A stretch of 23,613 nucleotides of DNA from the IMG/VR virus record IMGVR_UViG_2617270938_000001; one strand, written 5' to 3'. This DNA comes from a virus. Taxonomy: Duplodnaviria > Heunggongvirae > Uroviricota > Caudoviricetes. Under the pieces are notes generated by a model. The model was not told where the DNA came from, did no database searches, and saw only the letters and a list, made by a program, of their open reading frames with translations. How positions within the stretch are numbered: the first letter of the stretch is position 1; every line of letters starts with the position of its first letter. Shown here piece by piece: positions 124 to 22,280 of the stretch. The position numbers and the translations under genes were made by a program.

Positions 124-177
124 CTCTGCAAAACCTCTGCAAAACCCCTCTGCAAAACTGGTCATCAAATGACCAGT
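124..177. repeat. attL-proximal repeats: three tandem copies of CTCTGCAAAAC (124-134, 135-145, 148-158) followed by inverted repeat CTGGTCAT-caa-ATGACCAG (159-177)
   Basis: Read directly from the sequence. Located between the host gene stop and the int stop, where an attL core or integrase binding sites are expected; the inverted repeat overlaps the last int codons. Confidence 0.5.
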
Positions 178-1295
178 TTTTTCCATTCCTTACCGCGTGC
201 GTCGTTGTAAATATCGGTCATTTTTTGATTCGAATGGCCCAGCAAAATTTTGGTATCAACCCCCTGCTCTCTGAACAATCGCTCTGATAAAGATCTCTGC
301 TCATGGAAAGAGGGTGGGGTGCCATTAGCACGCCAGTTGTAATCCACAGAATCCCGGGCTTTTTTAAATGCAACGGTTAATGTTGCTGGCTTAACCATCC
401 CGCCGCGCTTAGCTGTCCCTTTCGCGTGATGGTGGTGCAATAGCCACGGACTAAGAACGCAATCGCGGCAGGATGACACCACATCATCTAGGGTGAGATT
501 TAATTTATCGCAACGCAGAGCCAGAGGGATGGCAATCCGGGTTCCTGTTTTTTGCTGTTCGACATGAAGATAACCATCCCGGATATCCGAAAATTGCATT
601 TTGCAAATATCTGAAAGGCGCTGGCCTGTCATCAGTGCCAGCAGCATACCGCGCTGTAAAAAGTAACCATCCTTTTCCGCTGCGTTATAAATCATCATCC
701 ACTCATCAAAAGTCAGTCGCTGTCTTGATATCCGCACCTGCGGTTTTTTTGCCGATTCTGCAGGGTTAAAGCCTGGCGGGACATCGCCCGTTTGCTGAGC
801 TTCCCGGAAAACATCGATCAGTACCTTCCTGAAAATTTGTCCCATTCTGTTATGTCCTCTGGCCTTGTACTCTTCCAGTACTGATACCACATCTTTTACG
901 GTTATGGCATCTAACGGTCTGGTGCCAAAACGTTCATCAAATACCCTGAGAGGGGCCGCTTTCTGTTTCAGCGTGTTGAGTTTGATCTCGCCGTTTTCAT
1001 ATCTTTCCTGTTGAATTTTTCTGTAATTATTCAGAAAAATGGTAACGGTTGATGAACCGCCGGTATCACTAATAATTTTCTCCTGCAGACTGAGCATTTG
1101 TTCCATTTGCTGCCGGGCAAGACGGCTGTTCGCTTCTGCTGCAATAGTTTCTGCCAGTTTCTGGTCAATACTGCCGAGACCGTGATTTTTGCCTGTTATG
1201 GGATGCCTGTAACGCCAGTAAACTTTGTTATTTCTTTTGTCAAAATACGGAGATAATCCCGGAACATTGGTTTTATATTTTCGCGGGCGCGCCAT
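165..1295 (-). CDS. int: phage integrase, tyrosine recombinase (lambda Int family)
   Basis: 376-aa ORF. C-terminal region resembles lambda Int as I recall it (RLTFDEW..., GQRLSDICKM, HEQRSLSERL, LLGHSNQKMTDIYNDARGKEW), including the His/Arg and Tyr catalytic motifs. Sits next to the host junction with xis overlapping upstream. Confidence 0.9.
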   Translation of the reverse strand: MARPRKYKTNVPGLSPYFDKRNNKVYWRYRHPITGKNHGLGSIDQKLAETIAAEANSRLARQQMEQMLSLQEKIISDTGGSSTVTIFLNNYRKIQQERYENGEIKLNTLKQKAAPLRVFDERFGTRPLDAITVKDVVSVLEEYKARGHNRMGQIFRKVLIDVFREAQQTGDVPPGFNPAESAKKPQVRISRQRLTFDEWMMIYNAAEKDGYFLQRGMLLALMTGQRLSDICKMQFSDIRDGYLHVEQQKTGTRIAIPLALRCDKLNLTLDDVVSSCRDCVLSPWLLHHHHAKGTAKRGGMVKPATLTVAFKKARDSVDYNWRANGTPPSFHEQRSLSERLFREQGVDTKILLGHSNQKMTDIYNDARGKEWKKLVI

Positions 1296-1521
1296 CTTCC
1301 AGTATCCTCTTCAAAGCAGGGTGATCTGTGGCGATCACCTCCGGCTTGTTTACCATTCCGACAAAGCGAGCTTGCGGATCCACTCGCCAGCGTCTTCCAA
1401 CTTTTTTGGGGAGAGGAAATATCATTCCGGCTTTAGCGTATTTACTTAACGTACTCGGAGTTGGGACCGGTTCACTGAATTCCTCTTTTGCCCACTCAGT
1501 GAGCAGAATAAGTCTTGCCAT
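1273..1521 (-). CDS. xis: excisionase (Xis-like DNA-binding protein)
   Basis: 82-aa basic ORF whose 3' end overlaps the int start by 23 bp, the lambda xis-int arrangement. Contains the FPLPKKVGRRWRV motif similar to lambda Xis. No clear SD upstream, so the start is uncertain. Confidence 0.7.
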   Translation of the reverse strand: MARLILLTEWAKEEFSEPVPTPSTLSKYAKAGMIFPLPKKVGRRWRVDPQARFVGMVNKPEVIATDHPALKRILEDGAPAKI

Positions 1522-1585: not shown

Positions 1586-4057
1586 TTAAAAATCAGCCTG
1601 GTTCGGGATCAGTTTTTGCCAGATAACTGAAACGTATTTTGCCTGGTAACGGGCGTCATCAAGTGCATTATGGCGCTCACCTTCGAATGGAATAGCCGTT
1701 CTGGCATCGAAGTCTATGGCTTTCCCCAGCTCAACGATTGTGCGTACATCGCGATCGTTGTAGTAACGCCACGGGCAGGGGATCCCCTGCCGTTCGTATG
1801 AACGGCGCAAAATCGTGTTGTCGAAGTTGGCTCCATTTCCCCAGACCTGAACAAAAAATTCACCGGAGTTTTCGTCGATAAATTCCCGCAATTGTAACAG
1901 TGCATCATCTAACGGGATTTCATCGGTCATAATGGCAGACTGCGCTTCACGTGATTGCTTCAGCCACCTTTTAATGACGTCACGATCAATGACTCCGCCA
2001 GCAGTTTCCAGATCGATAGTCTTACTAAATTCCGGTCCCATATCTCCGGTTTGCGGATCGAAAAATATTGCACCTATTGAGATAATCGGGGCATCAGGAT
2101 TTTTTCCCATGGTTTCAAGGTCGATCATTAGATGGTCACACGTCCTGCTGGTGGATGTGATAACGTGATGACCGTTCATCGTAATTAAGGGATCTGCCGT
2201 CTCGCCAGTTTCACTATCGCTGGCGTGATCCTGAGCGCTACCAGCATTCTCCTTGTGTGGATGTTCAGCGCCTTCCATTTCCTTCGGATCATTTTCCTGA
2301 ACTTCAACCTGATTCTCTTCATCGAATGTTTCCTGGTATGTTGCGTCACCCATCACCGCGCCACAATCAGGGCAGTTGCCGCCACCGCTTTGACCGCAGG
2401 CGGTGCAGACTTTTTCCGGTTCCTGTTGCGCTACTGGCTCAGGTTGTTTCGTTTCTGGCTCGTTTTGTTGCGTATTTGGGCTGTTTTGTTCCGCTTTCTG
2501 GTCGTTCTGTTCCGATTCTTGCTGGTTCTGGTTTACAGAATCGCGGGTTTCAATCCCCTTTACCCATTTCGGATCATTCGGGTCGCTAATCCCTGCAACA
2601 AATTCTCCGCGAGAGGCAGCAAGCAACTTATCGGCGTCAGGCTGGCTGATATTGGCTGCCTGCATAATTTTGTTTACTTCGTCAGCGGTAACTTTTACCG
2701 GCTCTGGTTGTGCGGTCGTGTCAGATGCACCAGTATTTTGTTGTGAACCTGAGTACGTGCCGTTTTTACGTGCGAAGTATTCCTCTTTTGTGATTTCCGT
2801 AGCTCCCAAGGCTAGTGCTTTTTCCAGACCAGAAAGTTTGTTTGCGCGACCGTATTTTTCGCCATCCTTGTCGGTGAAGAGGAAGTAGAACGGCCCCTCA
2901 CGCTCTACAGATGGTTCGACTTCCACTTTGCATTCGGTTTTTTCGTTGCCCGGAATTGCCGTTTCCACTGCATCAGTTTCTGGTACTGGCGACGAGAGAG
3001 TATCAGTTGCGCTCTGATTTCTTCCTTCATCTTCAAACACGCCCTTTGTAGTCAGGTATTCAGTAATGTATTTGTTCAGTGCCACAGGGTCTTTGTGAAT
3101 GTCGATCGGACGTTCACGGACAAGGCCAAAAATAGTCTGGCGGTCGTAGCGAAGGGCATCAGGCTGTTTGCGCATTGATGCCGAGATACGCTTCCAGTCT
3201 TCGCGGTCGTTGTCGATAACTTCATTTTTTGCCCAGCGATGGATGCTGCCGTCAATGTTTCCGGCATCCACATCACCAGGCCAGAGAGCGTAGGCCAGTT
3301 CGTCATCCAGTGTTTTCCATGTCTGCTTGTATTCGCGATGAATGGCAGCAATGACCGGGCTGATTTTTCCTGTTGAATTTTCACTGTGCTGTTGATTGGT
3401 TCTGGCGCGGGCGAGATCAACAACAGACGTGTATTTTCCGGTTTCCTTGCGTTCACCTTCGCGACGTTTTTTCCAGATGCGCATCTCTGCCTGAATTTCG
3501 GGCCATTTGGCACCAGGCTTACATTTATGCTTAACCCACCCGATGGCATGCAGCTTAAGCTCCGGATACATGGCGTTAACTTCTGGCATTTTCATCAACG
3601 CTTCAACGATATGTCCGTCGAATGTTGCCATGTCTTCCTGCAACAATTCCTGTGCGCTAATAACCATATCAACGGTGATGTTTTCACATGTGTCGAACTT
3701 AACCATGACAGCGTTCTGTACTTCAGGGGCCAGCTTGTCAAAAGTGACGTTCATCGGATCGGATTCAGTCTCAACCGGGACAAAGGAAGCAGACTCCTCA
3801 TCCCAGCGGTTTTCCTGCATATATTCAGCATCCCAGGAATCGAGGGCAGGGCGGGGTATACCGGGTTTATCCTCGCAGACAAGAAATTTATAAGCGCAGT
3901 CCTGAGCAGCCGGATAATGCTCCAGGAATTGCCAGTGAAATTTTGCGCGGGCGCGACGTTCATCACCGGCTTCAATGGCAGTGGCTACAGCGACGGCACC
4001 TTCTTCCTTTATTGCCTGTTCGTCCGGAATGGCGGCGCAAATAAAGACTTTACTCAT
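1586..4057 (-). CDS. exodeoxyribonuclease VIII-like protein with C-terminal DEDDh (DnaQ-like) 3'-5' exonuclease domain
   Basis: 823-aa ORF. C-terminal ~180 aa has exo motifs (MIDLETMG..., WGNGANFDNTIL, HNALDDARYQAKY). Central Cys4 ribbon CTACGQSGGGNCPDCG and a Q/E/P-rich low-complexity linker. GAGG SD upstream of the ATG at 4057. Confidence 0.8.
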   Translation of the reverse strand: MSKVFICAAIPDEQAIKEEGAVAVATAIEAGDERRARAKFHWQFLEHYPAAQDCAYKFLVCEDKPGIPRPALDSWDAEYMQENRWDEESASFVPVETESDPMNVTFDKLAPEVQNAVMVKFDTCENITVDMVISAQELLQEDMATFDGHIVEALMKMPEVNAMYPELKLHAIGWVKHKCKPGAKWPEIQAEMRIWKKRREGERKETGKYTSVVDLARARTNQQHSENSTGKISPVIAAIHREYKQTWKTLDDELAYALWPGDVDAGNIDGSIHRWAKNEVIDNDREDWKRISASMRKQPDALRYDRQTIFGLVRERPIDIHKDPVALNKYITEYLTTKGVFEDEGRNQSATDTLSSPVPETDAVETAIPGNEKTECKVEVEPSVEREGPFYFLFTDKDGEKYGRANKLSGLEKALALGATEITKEEYFARKNGTYSGSQQNTGASDTTAQPEPVKVTADEVNKIMQAANISQPDADKLLAASRGEFVAGISDPNDPKWVKGIETRDSVNQNQQESEQNDQKAEQNSPNTQQNEPETKQPEPVAQQEPEKVCTACGQSGGGNCPDCGAVMGDATYQETFDEENQVEVQENDPKEMEGAEHPHKENAGSAQDHASDSETGETADPLITMNGHHVITSTSRTCDHLMIDLETMGKNPDAPIISIGAIFFDPQTGDMGPEFSKTIDLETAGGVIDRDVIKRWLKQSREAQSAIMTDEIPLDDALLQLREFIDENSGEFFVQVWGNGANFDNTILRRSYERQGIPCPWRYYNDRDVRTIVELGKAIDFDARTAIPFEGERHNALDDARYQAKYVSVIWQKLIPNQADF

Positions 4058-4149
4058 TTTGTTTTACCTCATTACAGATTTAAGGGTGAACAAATCCCTG
4101 CCATTGCTGGCATATAAGAATGAAACCGGATATTTATTACGGAACTGTT

Positions 4150-4341
4150 TTAAAGACCTGCCGGGATTTCGTTATTATCCTGGTGAATAACTTTATCGAC
4201 CGGGTAACAGTTACCGGGAATTTTCTGTTCGGTTGCTGCAGTCACACACTCCTGCATTGTCCTGTGAACACTGACTGCAATATCAACTGGCTCTCCGGAA
4301 ACAAGAAAAACTGTCAGAACAAGTGCAAATGCTGTATTCAT
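4150..4341 (-). CDS. small secreted protein (63 aa, predicted signal peptide), unknown function
   Basis: Start chosen at the internal ATG (MNTAFALVLTVFLVSG...) with AAAGGA upstream; hydrophobic N-terminus then VSG/EP cleavage-like site, two Cys. Its start overlaps the stop of the upstream gene (ATGA). The longer 81-aa start at 4395 is possible. Confidence 0.4.
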   Translation of the reverse strand: MNTAFALVLTVFLVSGEPVDIAVSVHRTMQECVTAATEQKIPGNCYPVDKVIHQDNNEIPAGL

Positions 4342-4526
4342 TGCCAGCATCCTTTTTGTATCGGACGTAAACGGGCCAGCATTGAAAGAATGCATATTTT
4401 ATTTAATAGCTCCCGTTCGTGTTTTCTCTTGTTAATGGCATCTTCAGTAAATACAGGGTTACTGATATTGACACCAATTTCAAAACAACCTTCAGACGTA
4501 TTAACGTTTGGTAATAACGTTTCCAT
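4338..4526 (-). CDS. hypothetical small protein (62 aa), early-left operon
   Basis: ATG preceded by GAGGA at 7 nt (METLLPNVNTSEGCFEIG...); ATGA-coupled to the next gene. The ORF track allows a longer 97-aa form starting at 4631. Confidence 0.4.
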   Translation of the reverse strand: METLLPNVNTSEGCFEIGVNISNPVFTEDAINKRKHERELLNKICILSMLARLRPIQKGCWQ

Positions 4527-5087
4527 TATCGCGTCCTCAACAATGAATTTTGTGATGCGGTGCCTGGTGCCTCCAGGTGACGTTAACCAGTTAACAATTA
4601 ACGCCGGATACAGAGAATCCACCCATAACACTGTTTTTGGTTTTAACTGTTCCGCGTGCGCTCAGCCGCATTCACCACATCACAAAATTCACTTTAAAAA
4701 GGGCGGCAGAGCAGTCACGGAGTAAAACTGATACCGCCAAACGTCACCAGAAAATTGATAACAGAGGGCGTTGCAGCGGGGTTGTCACTTAAGCGTATGG
4801 TCAACCTGACAACCCGGTGTCCTCAACGGGGAAGGAATACCCCCGCCATACTTACCGCCGCGCCATTTCGCGGAGTGCCACAACCGGAAGCGCACGGTCG
4901 ACGAAAATTTAACGACAGGCTATCTATGAACCAACAACTTCGCCGTGTGCTTTCGCGTTATGCCCTGACTTTTCAGGGAAATATCCTTTCAGTAAACTGT
5001 CAGTGCCGGATGCTCACCCGTGTCCGGCGCACGCACTCCACCTCACCCGTGGAGAACTCCTTAATCACCAACCCTCAGGAGGGTGAA

Positions 5088-5363
5088 ATGTCGACTGAAA
5101 ATGATGAAATCATTAACTCCCTGATACGCCAGATTAATAATTTTGATAAAGCATTGCAACATGCTGCGGCGCGTAGTGATATAACTCTTTTAGCAATTTC
5201 ATTTCTTGCATCTGTTATGGATAAAAATGAAGTCGTACGACAGAGTCTTGTTGATTATATCGACTCGCTTCAACCCGGCACTTTCAATCATGAGAGCTTC
5301 AATCATGAGAAAGAGCATGTTAAGTCTGTAATTAATTCTCTTATTTTGAATCAAAAGAATTAA
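5088..5363 (+). CDS. hypothetical protein (91 aa) on the opposite strand inside the leftward operon, AT-rich (moron-like)
   Basis: Strong SD AGGAGGG 4 nt before ATG 5088 (MSTENDEIINSLIRQINNF...). Low-GC segment. The upstream part of ORF 4755..5363 has no SD and looks like run-in. Confidence 0.5.
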   Translation: MSTENDEIINSLIRQINNFDKALQHAAARSDITLLAISFLASVMDKNEVVRQSLVDYIDSLQPGTFNHESFNHEKEHVKSVINSLILNQKN

Positions 5364-6482: not shown

Positions 6483-6902
6483 CTATGATGCGTTTTGTGC
6501 TTTCTTTTTACGGATTTCTTCGTAGATCATATTGTAATACTGTTTTTTCTCTTCAAGAGTTTTTAATAAGTTATCCGCTTCACTTTCTGGCAGTTCGTCT
6601 AAGAGATCTAAAAAAATACGTTGTCGTGGCGTTAGAACCCTTGTTTCATAACTGGAGGCTGTGTTCGTTGATGATGAAACGATACCATCCATCCATCCCC
6701 GGGGTAACCCAAAGGACTCTTCGATAATCTCCACCATATCATCAGCGATCCGTTTTTTTCCCTTTTTCCCCTCTGGGTACAACATTCTTGATACATAAGA
6801 AGGCTCGCGCCCGATCTTTCTGGCCACGTTAACCGCTTTACCATCGCATTTCTCATCACGAATTTTGATGAGTTGCTGTCGTCTAAATTCATATTTGTCC
6901 AT
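6483..6902 (-). CDS. prophage repressor, cI-like HTH protein without a LexA-type peptidase domain (RacR-like)
   Basis: 139-aa ORF with an HTH-like segment (GKAVNVARKIGREPSYVSRML); divergent from a cro-like gene with operators between them. Too short for a C-terminal S24 autocleavage domain. Confidence 0.75.
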   Translation of the reverse strand: MDKYEFRRQQLIKIRDEKCDGKAVNVARKIGREPSYVSRMLYPEGKKGKKRIADDMVEIIEESFGLPRGWMDGIVSSSTNTASSYETRVLTPRQRIFLDLLDELPESEADNLLKTLEEKKQYYNMIYEEIRKKKAQNAS

Positions 6903-10731: not shown

Positions 10732-10942
10732 AAACGGTTTGCGGGAAAAGGAGAGTTAAGTAGAATTGCAGCGGGTGCTTGAGGCTATCTGTCTCAGGCA
10801 TGAACACCAAAAGGCAGATAGAGAAAAGCCCCAGTTAACATTACGCGTCCGGCAAGACGCTTAACATTAATCTGAGGCCATATCTATGCTCTACACACGT
10901 AGGTTAGCCTCTTACGTGCCGAAAGGCAAGGAGAAGCAGGCT

Positions 10943-11098
10943 ATGAAGCAGCAAAAGGCGATGCTAATCGCCCTGATCGTCATCTGTTTAACCGTCATTG
11001 TGACGGCACTGGTAACGAGGAAAGACCTCTGCGAGGTACGAATCCGAACCGGCCAGACGGAGGTCGCTGTCTTCACAGCTTACGAACCTGAGGAGTAA
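10943..11098 (+). CDS. hokD: Hok/Gef-family type I toxin (51 aa; matches my recollection of E. coli HokD/RelF)
   Basis: MKQQKAMLIALIVICLTVIVTALVTRKDLCEVRIRTGQTEVAVFTAYEPEE. AGGAGA SD 8 nt upstream. An in-frame upstream extension from ATG 10886 gives a 70-aa mok-like ORF. Confidence 0.9.
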   Translation: MKQQKAMLIALIVICLTVIVTALVTRKDLCEVRIRTGQTEVAVFTAYEPEE

Positions 11099-15469: not shown

Positions 15470-15540
15470 GGCCCTTTAGCTCAGTGGTGAGAGCGAGCTA
15501 AAGGGCCGGGTCGCTGGTTCAAATCCAGCAAGGGCCACCA
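15470..15540 (+). tRNA. tRNA-Ile-like element with aberrant anticodon arm (probable tRNA pseudogene)
   Basis: Acceptor GGCCCTT/AAGGGCC, D-arm GCTC-AGTGGTGA-GAGC, T-arm GCTGG-TTCAAAT-CCAGC and 3' ACCA are intact. The anticodon-arm region is 12 nt (AGCTAAAGGGCC) instead of 17 and is perfectly complementary to the element's own 5' end. Confidence 0.5.
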
Positions 15541-15549
15541 TATCACATA

Positions 15550-15626
15550 CCACCATTAGCTCATCGGGATAGAGCGCCAGCCTTCGAAGCTGGTTGCGCG
15601 GGGTTCGAGTTCTCGATGGCGGTCCA
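15550..15626 (+). tRNA. tRNA-Arg (anticodon TCG)-like; candidate tRNA with imperfect stems
   Basis: D-arm GCTC-ATCGGGATA-GAGC; anticodon arm CCAGC-CTTCGAA-GCTGG; T-loop TTCGAGT; 3' CCA. One A-C mismatch in the acceptor stem and two G-T pairs in the T-stem. Confidence 0.45.
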
Positions 15627-15882: not shown

Positions 15883-16080
15883 ATTGTCTGGCTGCCGGAG
15901 AATTTGTTAAAAATAACATCGCATGGTGAATCCCCCTCAGCGGCGGGGCATCTGGCAAAGTGTATGATCCAGAGAACATGCAAATTCAGTAGACAGGCTG
16001 AATTTACCGGGAGGCCCCTGGCACCATGCGACAGACAGAAATTAGGCTATACTTCAGCCCCTCTCCGGAGGGGCTTTTCT
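15883..16080 (+). ncRNA. candidate noncoding RNA element A (about 198 nt), paralog of element B, ending in intrinsic terminator AGCCCCTC-TCCG-GAGGGGCT + TTTT
   Basis: Shares blocks with 16352-16545 (ATTGTCTGGC, TTTGTTAAAAA, CGCATGGTGAATCCCCCT, GAATTnACCGGGAGGCnCCnGGCACCATGC, identical terminator hairpin). The overlapping ORFs are on different strands in the two copies, arguing against a shared protein. Confidence 0.45.
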
Positions 16081-16268
16081 GTGCAGGATGTGTCACAGTT
16101 TCCTGAATTCTGAGTACTGTCCTGTTACTCAGGGTGCTATATTTTCTGACGTGATGAAAGTCTGCCGGAAGGCGGAACGTATCGGAAATGACCCAGTAGA
16201 GAAAACGTTGACTCAGATACCGATGCTGAGTTACCGGGAAACCGGCATCACATGACCGCTATCCTTCC

Positions 16269-16351: not shown

Positions 16352-16545
16352 ATTGTCTGGCCGGCGGGAAGTTTGTTAAAAAATTTCGCATGGTGAATCC
16401 CCCTGTGCGGAGGGGTAATCAGCGAGTAGGTATATGGGATAATCGCGGATTCAGGTGCTGGTACTGAATTCACCGGGAGGCACCCGGCACCATGCAATGG
16501 CACATAGCGCCACTCTCCAGCCCCTCTCCGGAGGGGCTGTTTATA
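16352..16545 (+). ncRNA. candidate noncoding RNA element B (about 194 nt), paralog of element A, same terminator hairpin (16519-16538)
   Basis: See element A. The conserved 5' block, the GGTGAATCCCCCT block, the GGGAGGC block and the terminator are retained while the middle has diverged. Confidence 0.45.
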
Positions 16546-16573
16546 TTGATTTTGTCAGATGTGAGTAAACTCC

Positions 16574-16909: not shown

Positions 16910-17169
16910 TTAGCTTCCTTGTTTATGCCTTGCTGGTGATGTTCTGAAAAGTATAAATGATATTTTTGAATATAAACCATAGAGCAGAATTATTTTTCTG
17001 ATGTTGTTTATTGTTTATTTAAATGCAGGGTGGTTTATATCTCGTCTTGTAGTTTATCCATGCATATCTGCTTGATGATCAGGTTTCTATTTAAGGTATG
17101 GTTTTGTGTTTTTTCTGTGTTACATGTCTGGTATTTTAAAGAATTATTTTTCAGATGGTGGAAAGAACC

Positions 17170-17358
17170 ATGGCATTTAAACACTATGATGTTGTCAGGG
17201 CGGCGGCGCCGTCAGATCTTGCGGAAAAGCTGACACATAAACTGAAAGAGGGCTGGCAGCCGTTTGGTAGTCCGGTGGCCATAACCCCTTATACCCTGAT
17301 GCAGGCGATTGCAGCAGAAGGTGATGTGGTGGTCAGTGGTGCAACTGAGCCGGAGTGA
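17170..17358 (+). CDS. small conserved hypothetical protein (62 aa) upstream of the holin (possibly DUF1737-like)
   Basis: MAFKHYDVVRAAAPSDLAEKLTHKLKEGWQPFGSPVAI...; position just before the lysis cassette. Family name is recalled, not verified. Confidence 0.45.
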   Translation: MAFKHYDVVRAAAPSDLAEKLTHKLKEGWQPFGSPVAITPYTLMQAIAAEGDVVVSGATEPE

Positions 17359-17600
17359 TACTACGTCATCGTACTGGCCCGGCATTCCAGGCCATAAAAG
17401 ACGGTCTGGCAGTGGGACTAAATGCACTGACGCTGACGGATATTACCAAAAATGCAACGTATGGCGTTGAGATAGAAAGTCTGGTGCTGGAGATAAATAC
17501 ACCGGCATCATCATAAAAAGTGAGCCAGTCAAATGGAAGGTATCGTTAAACTCACCGGTAGTGTCAGTGGAGCGTCTGAGACGCTTGCATGAGTTATCAG

Positions 17601-17633
17601 AGCCATCAGTAGTTAACTGGTGGCTTTTTTATT
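17601..17633 (+). terminator. intrinsic terminator-like hairpin just upstream of the holin (AGCCATCAG-tagttaa-CTGGTGGCT + TTTTTTATT)
   Basis: 9-bp stem with one G-T pair followed by a T-run; promoter-like TTGAGA ... GATAAAT about 100-130 bp upstream. Confidence 0.5.
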
Positions 17634-17665
17634 GTTGTCAGCTTCCGGATAACGGGAGACGGGGT

Positions 17666-17881
17666 ATGGACCAGATGGAAAAAATCACAACAGGTGTGTC
17701 ATACACCACGTCAGCGGTGGGAACGGGCTACTGGTTCCTGCAGTTGCTGGACAGGGTTTCCCCGTCTCAGTGGGCGGCAATAGGCGTGCTGGGGAGTCTG
17801 CTGTTTGGGCTGCTGACATATCTGACTAACCTGTATTTCAAAATCAGAGAGGACCGTCGTAAGGCGGCACGGGGAGAGTAA
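17666..17881 (+). CDS. class II holin, phage 21 S21-type pinholin (71 aa) with dual-start motif
   Basis: [71 protein letters not shown], close to S21 as I recall it; Met1 and Met4 give the dual start. The track ORF 17561..17881 includes upstream run-in. Confidence 0.85.
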
Positions 17882-17885
17882 TTCA

Positions 17886-18236
17886 ATGACTCAAAACTAT
17901 GAACTGATTGTGAAAGGGATCCGCAATTTTGAGAATAAAGTTACGGTAACTTTAGCGTTACGGGACAAAAAACGCTTTGACGGTGAAATTTTTGACCTGG
18001 ACATCTCGCTGGACCGTGTTGAAGGTGCCGCGCTGGAGTTTTATGAGGCAGCAGCCAGAATGAGCATCAGACAGGTCTTCCTGGATGTTGCTGCCGGGTT
18101 ATGTGAAGGGGATGAGCAGTCGCCGGAAAAGCGCCCCGTAATTTTAGAGGCGCAGAATGTATGGATAACCTACAAAGGAAAGCTACCGGGAAGAATTACT
18201 GGTTCTCTGAAGACTCCTCCGGAATCACAACCTTAA
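17886..18236 (+). CDS. hypothetical protein (116 aa) embedded between holin and endolysin (YdfR-like position)
   Basis: GGGGAGAG SD; starts 5 nt after the holin stop. Some lambdoid prophages carry a gene at this position, but I cannot verify the family. Confidence 0.55.
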   Translation: MTQNYELIVKGIRNFENKVTVTLALRDKKRFDGEIFDLDISLDRVEGAALEFYEAAARMSIRQVFLDVAAGLCEGDEQSPEKRPVILEAQNVWITYKGKLPGRITGSLKTPPESQP

Positions 18237-18299
18237 GTCACTGACCGGAACAGATAAACCTGTCCGTGGGCAGAAACCGATAAATCCTGATAAATATCC

Positions 18300-18833
18300 A
18301 TGAACACCAAAATCAAATACGGCCTGTCGGCTGCCGTTCTGGCGCTGATTGCCGCTGGTGCGCCTGCGCCTGACATTCTCGACCAGTTTCTGGATGAAAA
18401 GGAAGGTAACCACACCACGGCATACCGTGATGGCGCGGGTATCTGGACCATCTGCCGCGGTGCCATCCTGGTGGATGGCAAACCTGTCGTTCCGGGCATG
18501 AAGTTGTCGAAGGAAAAATGCGACCGGGTTAACGCCATTGAGCGTGATAAGGCGCTGGCATGGGTGGAGAAAAACATCAAAGTGCCATTGAGCGAACCCC
18601 AGAAAGCGGGGATCGCGTCATTCTGTCCGTACAACATTGGTCCCGGTAAGTGTTTCCCGTCGACGTTTTATAAACGAATTAATGCAGGTGATCGCAGGGG
18701 AGCGTGTGAGGCGATTCGCTGGTGGATTAAGGACGGTGGCAGAGACTGCCGTATTCGTTCAAACAACTGCTACGGTCAGGTATCCCGTCGTGACCAGGAG
18801 AGCGCGCTGGCGTGCTGGGGTATCGACAGATAA
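18300..18833 (+). CDS. endolysin, lysozyme (T4-lysozyme / GH24-like) with N-terminal SAR (signal-anchor-release) domain
   Basis: 177 aa. Gly/Ala-rich weakly hydrophobic N-terminus (GLSAAVLALIAAGAPAP) followed by a lysozyme-like core (EGNHTTAYRDGAGIWTICRG ...), as in phage 21 R. Follows the pinholin. Confidence 0.85.
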   Translation: MNTKIKYGLSAAVLALIAAGAPAPDILDQFLDEKEGNHTTAYRDGAGIWTICRGAILVDGKPVVPGMKLSKEKCDRVNAIERDKALAWVEKNIKVPLSEPQKAGIASFCPYNIGPGKCFPSTFYKRINAGDRRGACEAIRWWIKDGGRDCRIRSNNCYGQVSRRDQESALACWGIDR

Positions 18834-18922
18834 GCAGAATATTTTGCTGAAAAATGCGGTTTGCTTACACGGACGGATAACACGAAATCCTGCGAACTGA
18901 CAAAAACTAAGTGAATAAAAGT

Positions 18923-18962
18923 AAAAACCCCGTTTGTTGGCTGCAAGCGGGGTTTTGTGTTT
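18923..18962 (+). terminator. intrinsic terminator-like hairpin inside the lysis cassette (AAAACCCCG ... CGGGGTTTT + GTGTTT)
   Basis: 9-bp stem with a 15-nt loop and U-rich 3' side, between the endolysin and the small TM ORF / Rz. Confidence 0.45.
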
Positions 18963-18992
18963 CCTGACTCTGGAAAAGTCAAAGGAGAAAGT

Positions 18993-19130
18993 GTGTTTGA
19001 TTTTAGCAAACTGATTCGGGAGATTCGAGTGATGGCTGAAAAATTATCCACCTGGAAGTTCATTCTTATCTGGCTGGTGTTTGTGATTATGGCCTCCGGT
19101 TATTTCATCGGTCAGATACGCTGGTGGTGA
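18993..19130 (+). CDS. small membrane protein (45 aa) immediately upstream of Rz; not in the ORF track
   Basis: GTG start with strong SD AAGGAG 5 nt upstream: (M)FDFSKLIREIRVMAEKLSTWKFILIWLVFVIMASGYFIGQIRWW. One TM segment; stop 1 nt before the Rz ATG. Confidence 0.4.
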   Translation: MFDFSKLIREIRVMAEKLSTWKFILIWLVFVIMASGYFIGQIRWW

Positions 19131-19131
19131 A

Positions 19132-19497
19132 ATGAACCGCGTACTGTGCGTGGTCATCATTGCCCTGCTGGTGGCCTGTGGTGCGCTTAGTCTGGGGCTG
19201 AATCATTACCGTGATAACGCCATAACCTACAAAGAGCAGCGCGATAAAAAAGTCAGTGAGCTGGAGCAGGCAAATGCAACCATTACTGATATGCAGCAGC
19301 GCCAGCGTGATGTTGCTGTACTTGATGCCAGATACTCGAGGGAATTAGCCGATGCGAGAGCTGAAAATGAAACTCTGCGCGCTGACGTTGCCGCTGGTCG
19401 TAAGCGCCTGCGGATCAACGCCACCTGCCCCGGTACCCGAACACGGCACTGGTCGGCGTGCAGGTGGACTCGGAACAGTTCGGCAGCCAGCAGGTGA
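19132..19497 (+). CDS. i-spanin Rz, N-terminal ~90 aa only; C-terminus replaced by out-of-frame J sequence (likely pseudogene); no Rz1 found
   Basis: [93 protein letters not shown] closely parallels lambda Rz; similarity is lost at about 19400-19420 where the J frame opens. Confidence 0.7.
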
Positions 19498-22280
19498 GCC
19501 GTAATTATCATCTTCGCGGGCGCATTCTGCAGGTGCCGTCGAACTATAACCCGCAGACGCGGCAATACAGCGGTATCTGGGACGGAACGTTTAAGCCAGC
19601 ATACAGCAACAACATGGCCTGGTGTCTGTGGGATATGCTGACCCATCCGCGCTACGGCATGGGGAAGCGTCTCGGTGCGGCGGATGTGGACAAATGGGCG
19701 CTGTATGTCATCGGCCAGAATTGCGACCAGTCGGTGCCGGATGGCTTTGGTGGCACGGAGCCGCGCATCACCTGTAATGCCTACCTGACCACACAGCGCA
19801 AGGCGTGGGATGTTCTCAGTGATTTCTGCTCGGCGATGCGCTGTATGCCGGTATGGAACGGGCAGACGCTGACGTTCGTGCAGGACCGACCGTCGGATAA
19901 GGTGTGGACCTATAACCGCAGTAATGTGGTGATGCCGGATGATGGCGCGCCGTTCCGCTACAGCTTCAGTGCCCTGAAGGACCGTCATAATGCCGTTGAG
20001 GTGAACTGGATTGACCCGGATAACGGCTGGGAGACGGCGACAGAGCTTGTTGAAGATACGCAGGCCATTGCCCGTTACGGTCGTAACGTCACGAAGATAG
20101 ATGCCTTTGGCTGTACCAGCCGGGGGCAGGCACATCGCGCCGGGCTGTGGCTGATTAAAACAGAACTGCTGGAAACGCAGACCGTGGACTTCAGCGTGGG
20201 TGCTGAAGGGCTTCGCCATGTGCCGGGCGATGTCATTGAAATCTGTGATGATGACTATGCCGGTATCAGCACCGGTGGTCGCGTGCTGGCGGTGAACAGC
20301 CAGACCCGGACGCTGACGCTCGACCGTGAAATCACGCTGCCATCCTCCGGTACCACGCTGATAAGCCTGGTTGACGGTCAGGGTAATCCGGTCAGCGTGG
20401 AGGTCCAGTCCGTCACCGACGGCGTGAAGGTGAAAGTGAGCCGTGTTCCTGACGGCGTTGCCGGATACAGCGTGTGGGGGCTGAAGCTGCCGACGCTGCG
20501 CCAGCGCCTGTTCCGCTGCGTGAGTATCCGTGAGAACGACGACGGCACGTATGCCATCACCGCCGTGCAGCATGTACCGGAAAAAGAAGCCATCGTGGAT
20601 AACGGGGCGCACTTTGACGGCGACCAGAGCGGCACGGTGAATGGTGTCACGCCGCCAGCGGTGCAGCATCTGACCGCAGAAGTCACCGCAGACAGCGGGG
20701 AATACCAGGTGCTGGCCCGCTGGGACACGCCGAAGGTGGTGAAGGGCGTGAGCTTCCTGCTTCGCCTGACCGTGGCAGCGGATGACGGCAGTGAGCGGCT
20801 GGTCAGCACGGCCCGGACGACGGAAACCACTTACCGCTTCACACAACTGGCTCTGGGGAACTACAGGCTGACAGTCCGGGCAGTAAATGCGTGGGGGCAG
20901 CAGGGCGATCCGGCGTCGGTATCGTTCCGGATTGCCGCACCGGCAGCGCCGTCGCGGATTGAGCTGACGCCGGGCTATTTTCAGATAACCGCCACGCCGC
21001 ATCTTGCGGTTTATGATCCGACGGTACAGTTTGAGTTCTGGTTCTCGGAAAAGCGGATTGCGGATATCAGGCAGGTTGAAACCACAGCACGCTATCTTGG
21101 GACGGCGCTGTACTGGATAGCCGCCAGTATCAATATCAGGCCGGGTCATAATTATTATTTTTACGTTCGCAGTGTGAACACCGTTGGCAAATCGGCATTC
21201 GTGGAGGCTGTTGGTCAGCCGAGTGATGACGCATCCGGCTATCTGGATTTTTTCAAAGGCGAGATAGGGAAAACCCATCTGGCTCAGGAGCTGTGGACGC
21301 AGATTGATAACGGTCAGCTTGCGCCTGACCTGGCTGAAATCAGAACATCCATTACGGATGTCAGCAATGAAATCACACAGACCGTCAATAAGAAACTGGA
21401 AGACCAGAGTGCGGCAATTCAGCAGATACAGAAGGTTCAGGTTGATACAAATAATAACCTGAACAGCATGTGGGCTGTGAAGCTGCAGCAGATGCAGGAC
21501 GGACGCCTTTATATCGCGGGTATTGGTGCCGGTATTGAGAACACCCCTGACGGCATGCAGAGTCAGGTGCTGCTGGCGGCAGACAGGATTGCGATGATTA
21601 ATCCTGCGAATGGCAACACAAAGCCGATGTTTGTTGGGCAGGGCGATCAGATATTCATGAACGACGTGTTCCTGAAACGCCTGACGGCTCCCACCATTAC
21701 CAGCGGCGGTAATCCTCCGGTATTTTCCCTGACACCGGACGGGCGGCTGACGGCGAAAAATGCCGATATCAGCGGTAACGTGAATGCGAACTCCGGGACG
21801 CTCAACAACGTCACGATTAACGAGAACTGTCGGGTTCTGGGAAAACTGTCTGCGAACCAGATTGAAGGCGATCTCGTTAAAACAGTGGGCAAAGCTTTCC
21901 CCCGGGACTCCCGTGCACCGGAGCGGTGGCCATCAGGGACCATTACCGTCAGGGTTTATGACGATCAGCCGTTTGACCGGCAGATTGTTATTCCCGCGGT
22001 GGCGTTTCGTGGCGCTAAACATGAGCGGGAGAATAACGATATTTATTCGTCATGCCGCCTGATGGTGAAGAAAAACGGTGCTGAAATTTATAACCGTACC
22101 GCGCTGGATAATACGCTGGTTTATACAGGTGTTATTGATATGCCTGCTGGTCGCGGTCACATGACGCTGGAGTTTTCGGTATCAGCGTGGCTGGTAAATG
22201 ACTGGTATCCCACAGCCAGTATCAGTGATTTGCTGGTTGTGGTGATGAAGAAATCCACAGCAGGTATCACGATTAGCTGA
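19404..22280 (+). CDS. J: tail-tip host specificity protein J, 5'-truncated (C-terminal ~940-960 codons; no upstream J sequence, start codon or promoter of its own)
   Basis: Long high-GC ORF with the size, position (immediately before lom and stf) and motifs expected of lambda J's C-terminal two-thirds. The frame is open from 19404; the track ORF begins at GTG 19458. Head and tail-shaft genes are absent upstream. Confidence 0.8.

Follow-up and report, generated by a model that had tools for sequence, protein, structure and literature searches.

An abundant Escherichia coli prophage exonuclease joins a DexA-like DEDDh domain to a RecE-related scaffold and has no annealase gene beside it

RecE (exodeoxyribonuclease VIII) is a large early-left protein of the Rac prophage, 866 amino acids (aa) in length, and is encoded together with the annealase RecT. 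The function of its own N-terminal part is unknown; this part is dispensable for nuclease function and boosts linear-linear recombination (2023 review, PMC11611040). DexA (exonuclease A) of the virulent phage T4 is a 3'-5' DNA exonuclease, which takes part in the scavenging of host DNA and in 3'-5' processing at double-strand breaks in intron homing (PMC12153337). EcD, a homologue of DexA from E. coli, degrades T4 DNA, which contains 5-hydroxymethylcytosine (5hmC), but not unmodified double-stranded DNA, and it protects against T4 (PMC12153337). Here we describe a gene of a lambdoid E. coli prophage, integrated at ompW and of the Qin/dicB type, whose product is related to RecE in its middle and to DexA at its C-terminus. 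The whole stretch of DNA that was analysed (the window) is the IMG/VR record IMGVR_UViG_2617270938_000001, 23,613 nucleotides (nt) long. The gene lies on its minus strand at 1586..4057 and codes for a protein of 823 aa. We observed that this protein does not qualify as RecE despite its RecE-type linker scaffold, and that recT segregates with the PD-(D/E)XK nuclease cassette of RecE, which the window gene does not carry. Both observations are new here.

The open reading frame (ORF) is genuine, as a preliminary description, made by a model from the letters of this DNA, had taken it to be. It begins with an ATG at 4057, preceded 9 nt 5' by a GAGG Shine-Dalgarno sequence, and ends with a TAA stop at 1586-1588. 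The protein matched phrog_2082 ('exonuclease') over its entire length (1-823 of 823). In the NCBI genome annotation it is named 'exonuclease', '3'-5' exonuclease' or '3'-5' exoribonuclease domain-containing protein', and several phage records label it 'exodeoxyribonuclease VIII' or 'exonuclease VIII, ds DNA exonuclease'. The gene is no oddity: as a prophage exonuclease it is abundant and had been catalogued before. In our literature search we found no paper in which Rv2179c-like, DEDDh or ydfE is tied to the 823-aa prophage protein.

The exonuclease domain occupies aa 627-823 (1589..2179, minus strand), with a Pfam core at aa 642-813. PF16473 (Rv2179c-like 3'-5' exonuclease) matched this core with E 3.1e-63 and 213 bits against a cutoff of 27, and the match covered profile positions 2-177 of 177. 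It was the sole strong Pfam domain in the protein. In an alignment of 19 homologues, T4 DexA included, D646, E648, H796 and D801 were invariant, while D746 was almost invariant. Together D646, E648, D746, H796 and D801 correspond to D7, E9, D119, H186 and D191 of DexA (Exo I DxE, Exo II D, Exo III H-x4-D; the catalytic assignments in DexA were taken from PMC12153337). With all catalytic residues intact in the alignment, the active site is predicted to be an intact two-metal site. The AlphaFold2 (AF2) model of aa 627-823 had a pLDDT of 88 and a pTM of 0.85. Its best PDB matches in Foldseek were the DexA structures 8KEL and 8KEN (E 1.5e-11, TM 0.72), followed by RNase T, REXO2 and the oligoribonucleases (Orn), all of which are DEDDh enzymes. 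By sequence, DexA was the only match in the PDB. The C-terminal DEDDh domain of the preliminary description is therefore borne out by the profile match, the residues and the fold. The PD-(D/E)XK fold of lambda Exo type, which had been named as the alternative to it, was matched neither in Pfam nor, for the C-terminal model, among the structures compared by Foldseek.

The likeness to DexA thus includes the family PF16473, the same DEDDh residues, the best PDB match and the fact that both enzymes are phage-encoded. There are also differences. DexA is a free-standing protein of 227 aa with extra loops, and its identity to the window domain is only about 21-27%. The window domain is fused to a RecE-like scaffold of 626 aa, belongs to a temperate phage and does not keep W152 and D169 of DexA. 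DEDDh enzymes are established as 3'-5' exonucleases. The same polarity would be expected of the window protein, by analogy with its family, as opposed to the 5'-3' polarity of RecE.

The substrate of such a domain may also be RNA, and the 3' ends that it trims or degrades could then be those of early-left transcripts, of int mRNA or of DicF precursors, among others. An exoribonuclease of M. tuberculosis, Rv2179c, gave the Pfam family its name, and RNase T and the oligoribonucleases are the next structural neighbours after DexA. Moreover, the gene lies between the small RNA (sRNA) DicF and xis-int, the lambda counterparts of which are regulated via decay from RNA 3' ends. However, it is a DNA exonuclease, DexA, that is both the only sequence match in the PDB and the best structural match. 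RNase T acts on DNA too, and the domain substitutes for a DNA nuclease on the RecE scaffold; we found no direct link to RNA. We regard an RNA exonuclease as very unlikely.

We compared the protein with genuine RecE, for which the Rac prophage locus (L003) served as reference. RecE has PF06630 at aa 2-178 (E 6e-97) and its PD-(D/E)XK domain, PF12684 (structure 3H4R), at aa 615-850. In BLASTP, aa 262-626 of the window protein aligned with RecE 278-592 (39% identity, E 3e-63), and identity was much higher from approximately aa 470 onwards, where the linker, the Cys4 motif and the acidic tail are located. The last segment common to both proteins is an acidic linker at aa 566-626 (2180..2362, minus strand). 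BLASTP homology ends at aa 626 (RecE 592), exactly where the PD-(D/E)XK domain of RecE would start, and the mosaic junction coincides with the 3' end of the acidic linker, at approximately 2180-2184. Identity to recE at the DNA level was restricted to 2184-2486 of the window (83.9%, sequence H39). The NCBIfam equivalog model of RecE, NF007259, matched only aa 246-626 (model positions 271-603 of 877) and gave 283 bits against a cutoff of 1269. PF12684 was not matched by the protein in Pfam, and the C-terminus of RecE had no tblastn match in the window. As a candidate RecE, the protein lacks PF12684, PF06630 and an adequate whole-protein score; what it has is the common middle region, the linker and the Cys4 motif. 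This matters for annotation. The protein fails every defining feature of RecE except the linker and should be excluded when prophages are mined for RecET-like recombineering systems.

The linker itself is a low-complexity stretch rich in Q, E, N and P at aa 500-547 (2417..2560, minus strand; Q 23%, E 17%, N 12%, P 10%). At the DNA level it corresponds to imperfect tandem repeats with a 21-bp unit (2424-2530; 74-77% matches, Tandem Repeats Finder), in agreement with the Q/E/P-rich linker and the imperfect DNA repeats noticed earlier. Next to it lies the Cys4 motif CTACGQSGGGNCPDC (C551-x2-C554-x7-C562-x2-C565; 2363..2407, minus strand), which is near-identical in RecE. A Cys4 ribbon had been proposed at this place. 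The four cysteines are present and conserved in genuine RecE, but the Pfam match to a zinc ribbon was weak (DZR, E 0.11). Judging from the motif, it may bind zinc.

The preliminary description had further put a region of the ExoVIII family (PF06630) at the N-terminus. This was the one domain that had been misplaced. Residues 1-245 are not RecE-like and PF06630 had no match in the 823-aa protein in Pfam; the similarity to RecE is confined to the part described above. Otherwise the architecture had been largely right, so that the earlier observation is confirmed in part. The N-terminal module at aa 1-257 (3287..4057, minus strand) corresponds to phrog_5943, which is separate from the RecE-like part, and AF2 predicted a small alpha/beta domain and a helical domain in it. 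The N-terminal ~255 aa are also found, with 96% DNA identity, as an IS2-truncated remnant in genomes of the K-12 lineage, C600 and ER1821R (H37, H38). This remnant, which we take to be ydfE of the Qin prophage, differs from the window gene in being interrupted by IS2 and in lacking the nuclease domain. An N-terminus of the PF06630 type does occur in sister alleles of the DEDDh gene. In a precomputed annotation, the N-terminal ~133 residues of the protein family are covered by two newer Pfam families, PF27430 and PF27432.

The middle region comprises aa 258-470 (2648..3286, minus strand) and was delimited by BLASTP to RecE, by NF007259 positions 271-603 and by AF2. It consists of a helical domain at aa 245-344, homologous to RecE 278-336, a disordered stretch, and a small beta/alpha module at aa 386-436. 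The AF2 model of the N-terminal 470 residues, built from an alignment of 32 sequences, shows three confident modules on disordered linkers (aa 1-204, pLDDT ~90; aa 245-344, ~90; aa 386-436, ~80). The module at aa 220-340 recurs in many protein architectures.

As the preliminary description had stated, the next gene is xis. The excisionase gene lies directly downstream at 1273..1521 (minus strand; PF07825, E 1.3e-7; annotated xisE in PPompW phages), with no recT, bet or erf in between, and is followed by the gene for a tyrosine integrase at the prophage end (165..1295, minus strand). We searched more widely for an annealase. No annealase family was matched in Pfam by any sizeable window ORF from int to the Q antiterminator, and RecT, Bet and Erf had no tblastn match in the window. 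Further, we collected 80 IMG/VR prophage loci with a DEDDh domain of at least 96% identity and up to 10 kb upstream of each. These were searched by tblastn (E < 0.01) with a panel of Rac RecT, lambda Bet, P22 Erf, lambda Exo, lambda Gam, P22 Abc2 and the RecE C-terminus. The panel matched in 0 of the 80 loci, and in neither the window nor 10 other loci (~1.0 Mb in all; positive controls worked). The most frequent same-strand ORFs of the 80 loci coded for repressors or unknowns (Pfam scan of the top ten). An additional Pfam scan of 111 representative ORFs from these loci covered the best 25 of 125 families, so that rare annealases could escape it. In the complete phage Tritos (46 kb), which carries a 94%-identical gene, there was no annotated annealase and none recognisable among the hypothetical early proteins by PHROGs.

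The missing annealase partner had thus been seen correctly, and its systematic absence supports the earlier suggestion that the functional context differs from that of a RecET-type recombinase. Unlike a recombinase of the exonuclease-plus-annealase kind (SynExo), the window gene has no adjacent co-transcribed annealase of the RecT/Bet, Erf or Rad52-like type. Many functional lambdoid phages evidently carry no annealase.

The converse control gave the opposite picture. In all 80 loci fetched via the PD-(D/E)XK domain of RecE, recT started 4 bases before the recE stop (offset -4). We also compared the N-termini. Among the DEDDh loci, 56 had an N-terminus of the ydfE type and 18 one of the RecE/PF06630 type. 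One chimera (P0124) consists of RecE 1-592 followed by a DEDDh domain of the window type. The reciprocal chimera (L107, 6153-9615), one of the PD-(D/E)XK loci, has an N-terminus and middle of the window type (89-92% identity over aa 1-470) with an in-frame PD-(D/E)XK domain, and then recT. The N-terminal type does not predict recT, which accompanies the PD-(D/E)XK cassette rather than the scaffold. It follows that the exchanged unit is the nuclease domain plus recT on one side and the DEDDh domain on the other, joined within the gene at the conserved low-complexity linker. This strict co-segregation and the junction inside the gene make it a clean example of domain-level mosaicism.

RecE and the window protein are thus alike in being large early-left prophage proteins (866 and 823 aa) with a homologous middle and a near-identical Q/E/P-rich linker, Cys4 motif and acidic tail. 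They also have the same operon logic, in which a division inhibitor is followed by a nuclease and then by xis-int, and natural chimeras connect the two. Besides the domain differences, none of recT, ralR and rcbA is found downstream of the window gene.

Given this relationship, the protein might still take part in recombination as an exonuclease, together with host RecA/RecFOR, with an annealase provided in trans (Rac RecT, for instance) or with an unrecognised annealase encoded elsewhere in the phage. In line with this are the middle and linker, kept from RecE at high identity, the enhancement of linear-linear recombination by the N-terminal part within full-length RecE (PMC11611040) and the contribution of DexA to break processing in T4 intron homing. 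Supply in trans would be possible in some hosts, as 32% of the complete E. coli genomes carry recE-recT. The expected polarity, however, would be unsuited to such a role. Known annealase partners load on the 3' overhangs that 5'-3' exonucleases produce, and DEDDh enzymes, by an established property of the family, remove 3' ends. Against it stand also the contrast between the DEDDh loci, none of which has an annealase, and the PD-(D/E)XK cassettes, to every one of which recT is translationally coupled, and the lack of any Rad52-, RecT- or Erf-like (annealase) fold in the AF2 model of the N-terminal 470 aa. The scaffold, moreover, is absent altogether from the free-standing versions described below. 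We consider this role quite unlikely.

We analyzed how widespread the gene is. Among 5426 complete E. coli genomes, the full gene was found in 3533 (at least 80% coverage, up to 10 places per genome) and the DEDDh cassette in 4052 (75%; 8113 places, up to 7 per genome), while the recE C-terminus with recT was found in 1728 (32%; 1841 places). The DEDDh cassette is therefore more than twice as widespread by genome and more than four times as abundant by copy. The preliminary description had presented the gene as an anomaly, a premise weakened by the DEDDh form being in the majority in E. coli. In lambdoid prophages of this species, no other nuclease of the early-left operon is as common, and we found no published function for the gene. 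Of 50,697 phage records, 1293 contain the family of PF16473-type domains; they come from temperate as well as virulent phages and include the T4-like DexAs, and a search at the level of representatives gave more than 10,000 relatives in many architectures.

Homologues of 180-190 aa, 52-90% identical to the DEDDh domain, exist as separate genes. These free-standing Rv2179c-like exonucleases lack the scaffold, the linker and the Cys4 motif. They were the last gene before xis-int, the slot of the window gene, in E. coli (P0070), in Salmonella (P0119) and in Citrobacter phage phiNP. No called or annotated gene around these three versions belonged to an annealase family, and in the E. coli and Salmonella loci the panel gave no match. 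In one E. coli prophage lineage (L005, 737-3127) the region of the gene is divided among three successive ORFs, 456, 157 and 183 aa long. P0070 is the DEDDh protein of 183 aa in this lineage and is kept as a separate product across 277 member sequences. In a Salmonella prophage (L012, 2462-3641), a gene for a dATP/dGTP pyrophosphohydrolase (PF04447) stands directly before the free-standing exonuclease, an arrangement which hints at a link to nucleotide metabolism.

We estimated the ratio of nonsynonymous to synonymous substitutions (dN/dS) from 47 distinct alleles of the 823-aa protein. It was 0.23 for the whole gene, 0.28 for both the middle and the linker, 0.22 for the nuclease and lowest, at 0.15, for the N-terminus. 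As values in all segments were 0.15-0.28, every part is maintained by purifying selection, and the view of the gene as a pseudogene or relic was ruled out on the same values. Decayed copies do occur. Three of them (P0051, P0065, P0078) have internal deletions which join aa 1-63, 1-133 or 1-103 to aa 672 or 709 through 822, and one frameshifted copy (L001:1676-4143) is annotated as a pseudogene in phage PPompW_132418.

On the minus strand, the gene order of the window is a cI/DicA-like repressor (6483-6902), small ORFs, DicF, dicB, a ydfD-like gene, the 823-aa gene, xis and int. The ydfD-like gene (4150..4395; DUF1482, PF07358, E 7.8e-25) lies directly upstream in the same operon. The gene for the cell-division inhibitor DicB precedes it (4338..4631; PF05358, E 4e-36). 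The true start of dicB is probably internal to this ORF, the Pfam match covering aa 36-97. The antisense sRNA DicF (4701..4752, minus strand; Rfam RF00039, 76.7 bits) is located just upstream of dicB. Because of DicF, dicB and the ydfD-like gene, the early-left operon is of the Qin/dicB type. No promoter-like site was found between ydfD and the 823-aa gene, promoter counts in the region equalled the shuffled expectation, and the only terminator-like hairpin between the two genes was weak, with a 5-bp stem (4112..4099). We also looked for a promoter or terminator of the gene's own; counts were at the shuffled level and nothing convincing was found before the start codon. The lack of a promoter and the presence of only a weak hairpin therefore favour co-transcription with the dicB operon.

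We think it probable, with appreciable room for the alternatives, that the protein is a stand-alone, Mg2+-dependent 3'-5' DNA exonuclease of the early-left operon, made after induction, and not the resection half of an exonuclease-plus-annealase pair. This reading starts from what the analysis showed: the architecture, intact catalytic residues, a predicted fold like that of DexA, the junction, recT co-segregating with PD-(D/E)XK, purifying selection and the operon position. The polarity, the DNA substrate, the action without a partner and the timing of expression would follow by extension. The protein would have three units: a scaffold of ~470 aa without a recognisable fold of its own (its helical module at aa 245-344 being common with RecE), a flexible linker with the Cys4 motif, and the DexA-like DEDDh domain. 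It may be seen as a cassette-exchange variant of RecE, in which, at the conserved linker, a DEDDh nuclease would take the place of the 5'-3' PD-(D/E)XK nuclease together with recT. The same nuclease also circulates in free-standing form, in that slot before xis-int, among further enterobacterial prophages. Production would begin after induction, from the repressor-controlled early-left operon, and free 3' ends would be trimmed or degraded. This may serve to process ends for the RecA pathways of the host or, as with DexA in T4, to break down DNA and salvage nucleotides. Of the two contexts suggested in the preliminary description, anti-defence or DNA processing, the second is thus the one favoured by the evidence, while the first found none in its support. 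The earlier interpretation as a whole is partly supported, being right on the missing partner and on the architecture apart from the placement of the RecE-like region.

Several points weigh against the stand-alone exonuclease. Its presumed polarity and DNA preference derive from membership in a family, at an identity to DexA as low as that given above. The founder of the Pfam family, Rv2179c, is said to have been described by Abendroth and colleagues in 2014 as an exoribonuclease. Within each set of 80 loci, the E. coli prophages are closely related, and few independent events were thus sampled many times. The annealase searches used three seed proteins together with Pfam and PHROG scans of selected ORFs, and an annealase of a novel type could escape them, as could one that a Rac prophage in the same cell provides in trans. 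Finally, if the conserved and selected 470-aa scaffold targets the nuclease to a specific partner, the notion that it acts alone is too simple.

The last point can be taken further. The RecE-type scaffold with its Cys4 linker might be a general delivery platform that takes interchangeable nucleases to one common cellular target or DNA structure, and the DEDDh version, as the prevailing one in E. coli, would then be a prophage nuclease for immunity or host takeover (for example an HREX-like one against modified or foreign DNA) and not a housekeeping end-trimmer. We consider this unlikely. If true, it would give a testable function to the N-terminal two thirds of RecE, which have long been unexplained. 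One scaffold serving two unrelated nucleases offers in any case a handle on this part of RecE.

The resemblance to EcD raises the question of defence. If the protein were a nuclease of this kind (HREX/EcD), the lysogen would express it, and it would degrade the DNA of incoming phages with modified bases such as 5hmC while sparing unmodified host DNA. EcD is a DexA-family DEDDh exonuclease of E. coli which has been proposed as the HREX defence (PMC12153337), and the C-terminal domain of the window protein is likewise homologous to DexA, by sequence and fold. The start of EcD, MIDTET (from the cloning primers), resembles MIDLET, found at M644 of the window protein and at the beginning of the free-standing versions from prophages. 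In E. coli the gene is multi-copy and extremely widespread, as would be expected of a prophage gene that benefits the host. Neighbouring genes of the dicB operon are reportedly known for phage exclusion from the work of Ragunathan and Vanderpool in 2019.

However, the residues to which PMC12153337 assigns the recognition of 5hmC are not kept in the window protein: W152 of DexA is replaced by Y766 and D169 by A780 (MAFFT; this depends on the alignment, and the D169 column is poorly conserved). At the position of W152, most other homologues of the alignment have Trp. The tetramer residue D90 of DexA is kept as D718, unlike what that paper assigns to the dimer-only state, and the equivalent of S87 is P715. 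EcD is free-standing, has Ala at D90 and retains both recognition residues, Trp and Asp; it is not said to be prophage-borne in PMC12153337. Further, there is no sigma-70-like promoter upstream on the strand of the gene, which lies deep in the repressor-controlled operon, and the PADLOC match was to a generic DEDDh only (E 1.5e-5). We also looked for EcD itself (HAK9828821.1). The gene-specific 20 nt of its reverse primer gave chance matches only, in a genome (an Acetatifactor metagenome-assembled genome) and in viral contigs. A homologue search seeded by T4 DexA listed T4-like DexAs only, and the MIDTET start was in none of the proteins fetched. Direct support for a role in defence or anti-defence was not found. 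A defence nuclease is, in our view, an improbable though not negligible explanation, and, with the 2025 report of EcD and its protection against T4, testing for defence has become inexpensive and well worth the effort.

A factor acting against host defence, which would degrade immune nucleic acids such as retron msDNA or signalling oligonucleotides, appears extremely improbable to us. The position in an early operon would suit a counter-defence gene, and Orn and REXO2, DEDDh enzymes which degrade dinucleotides, are among the structural neighbours. However, the domain is closest to DexA and not to the oligoribonucleases, and we found neither specific evidence nor a match in the literature. The DNA exonuclease acting on its own after induction remains the reading we prefer.

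Other features of the window were recorded as well. On the strand opposite the early-left operon, in the gap from DicF to the next leftward genes, there is an ORF of 202 aa at 4755-5363 (plus strand); it had no match in Pfam or PADLOC, and the PPompW annotation has only a coding sequence of 78 aa there. At ~17000-22280 no terminase, portal or head genes stand between the Q-methylase-lysis region and an ORF for a lambda J-like tail-tip protein (19458-22280, 940 aa), the first Pfam domain of which begins at aa 111. This suggests that the prophage is defective, with a large deletion of morphogenesis genes. The sok antitoxin RNA of a hok/sok-type toxin-antitoxin module was identified at 10773-10948 (plus strand). 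Downstream of the Q antiterminator and a DNA methylase, we found two tRNA genes at 15470-15623 and two copies of the sRNA STnc100, at 15891-16084 and 16360-16548, all on the plus strand.

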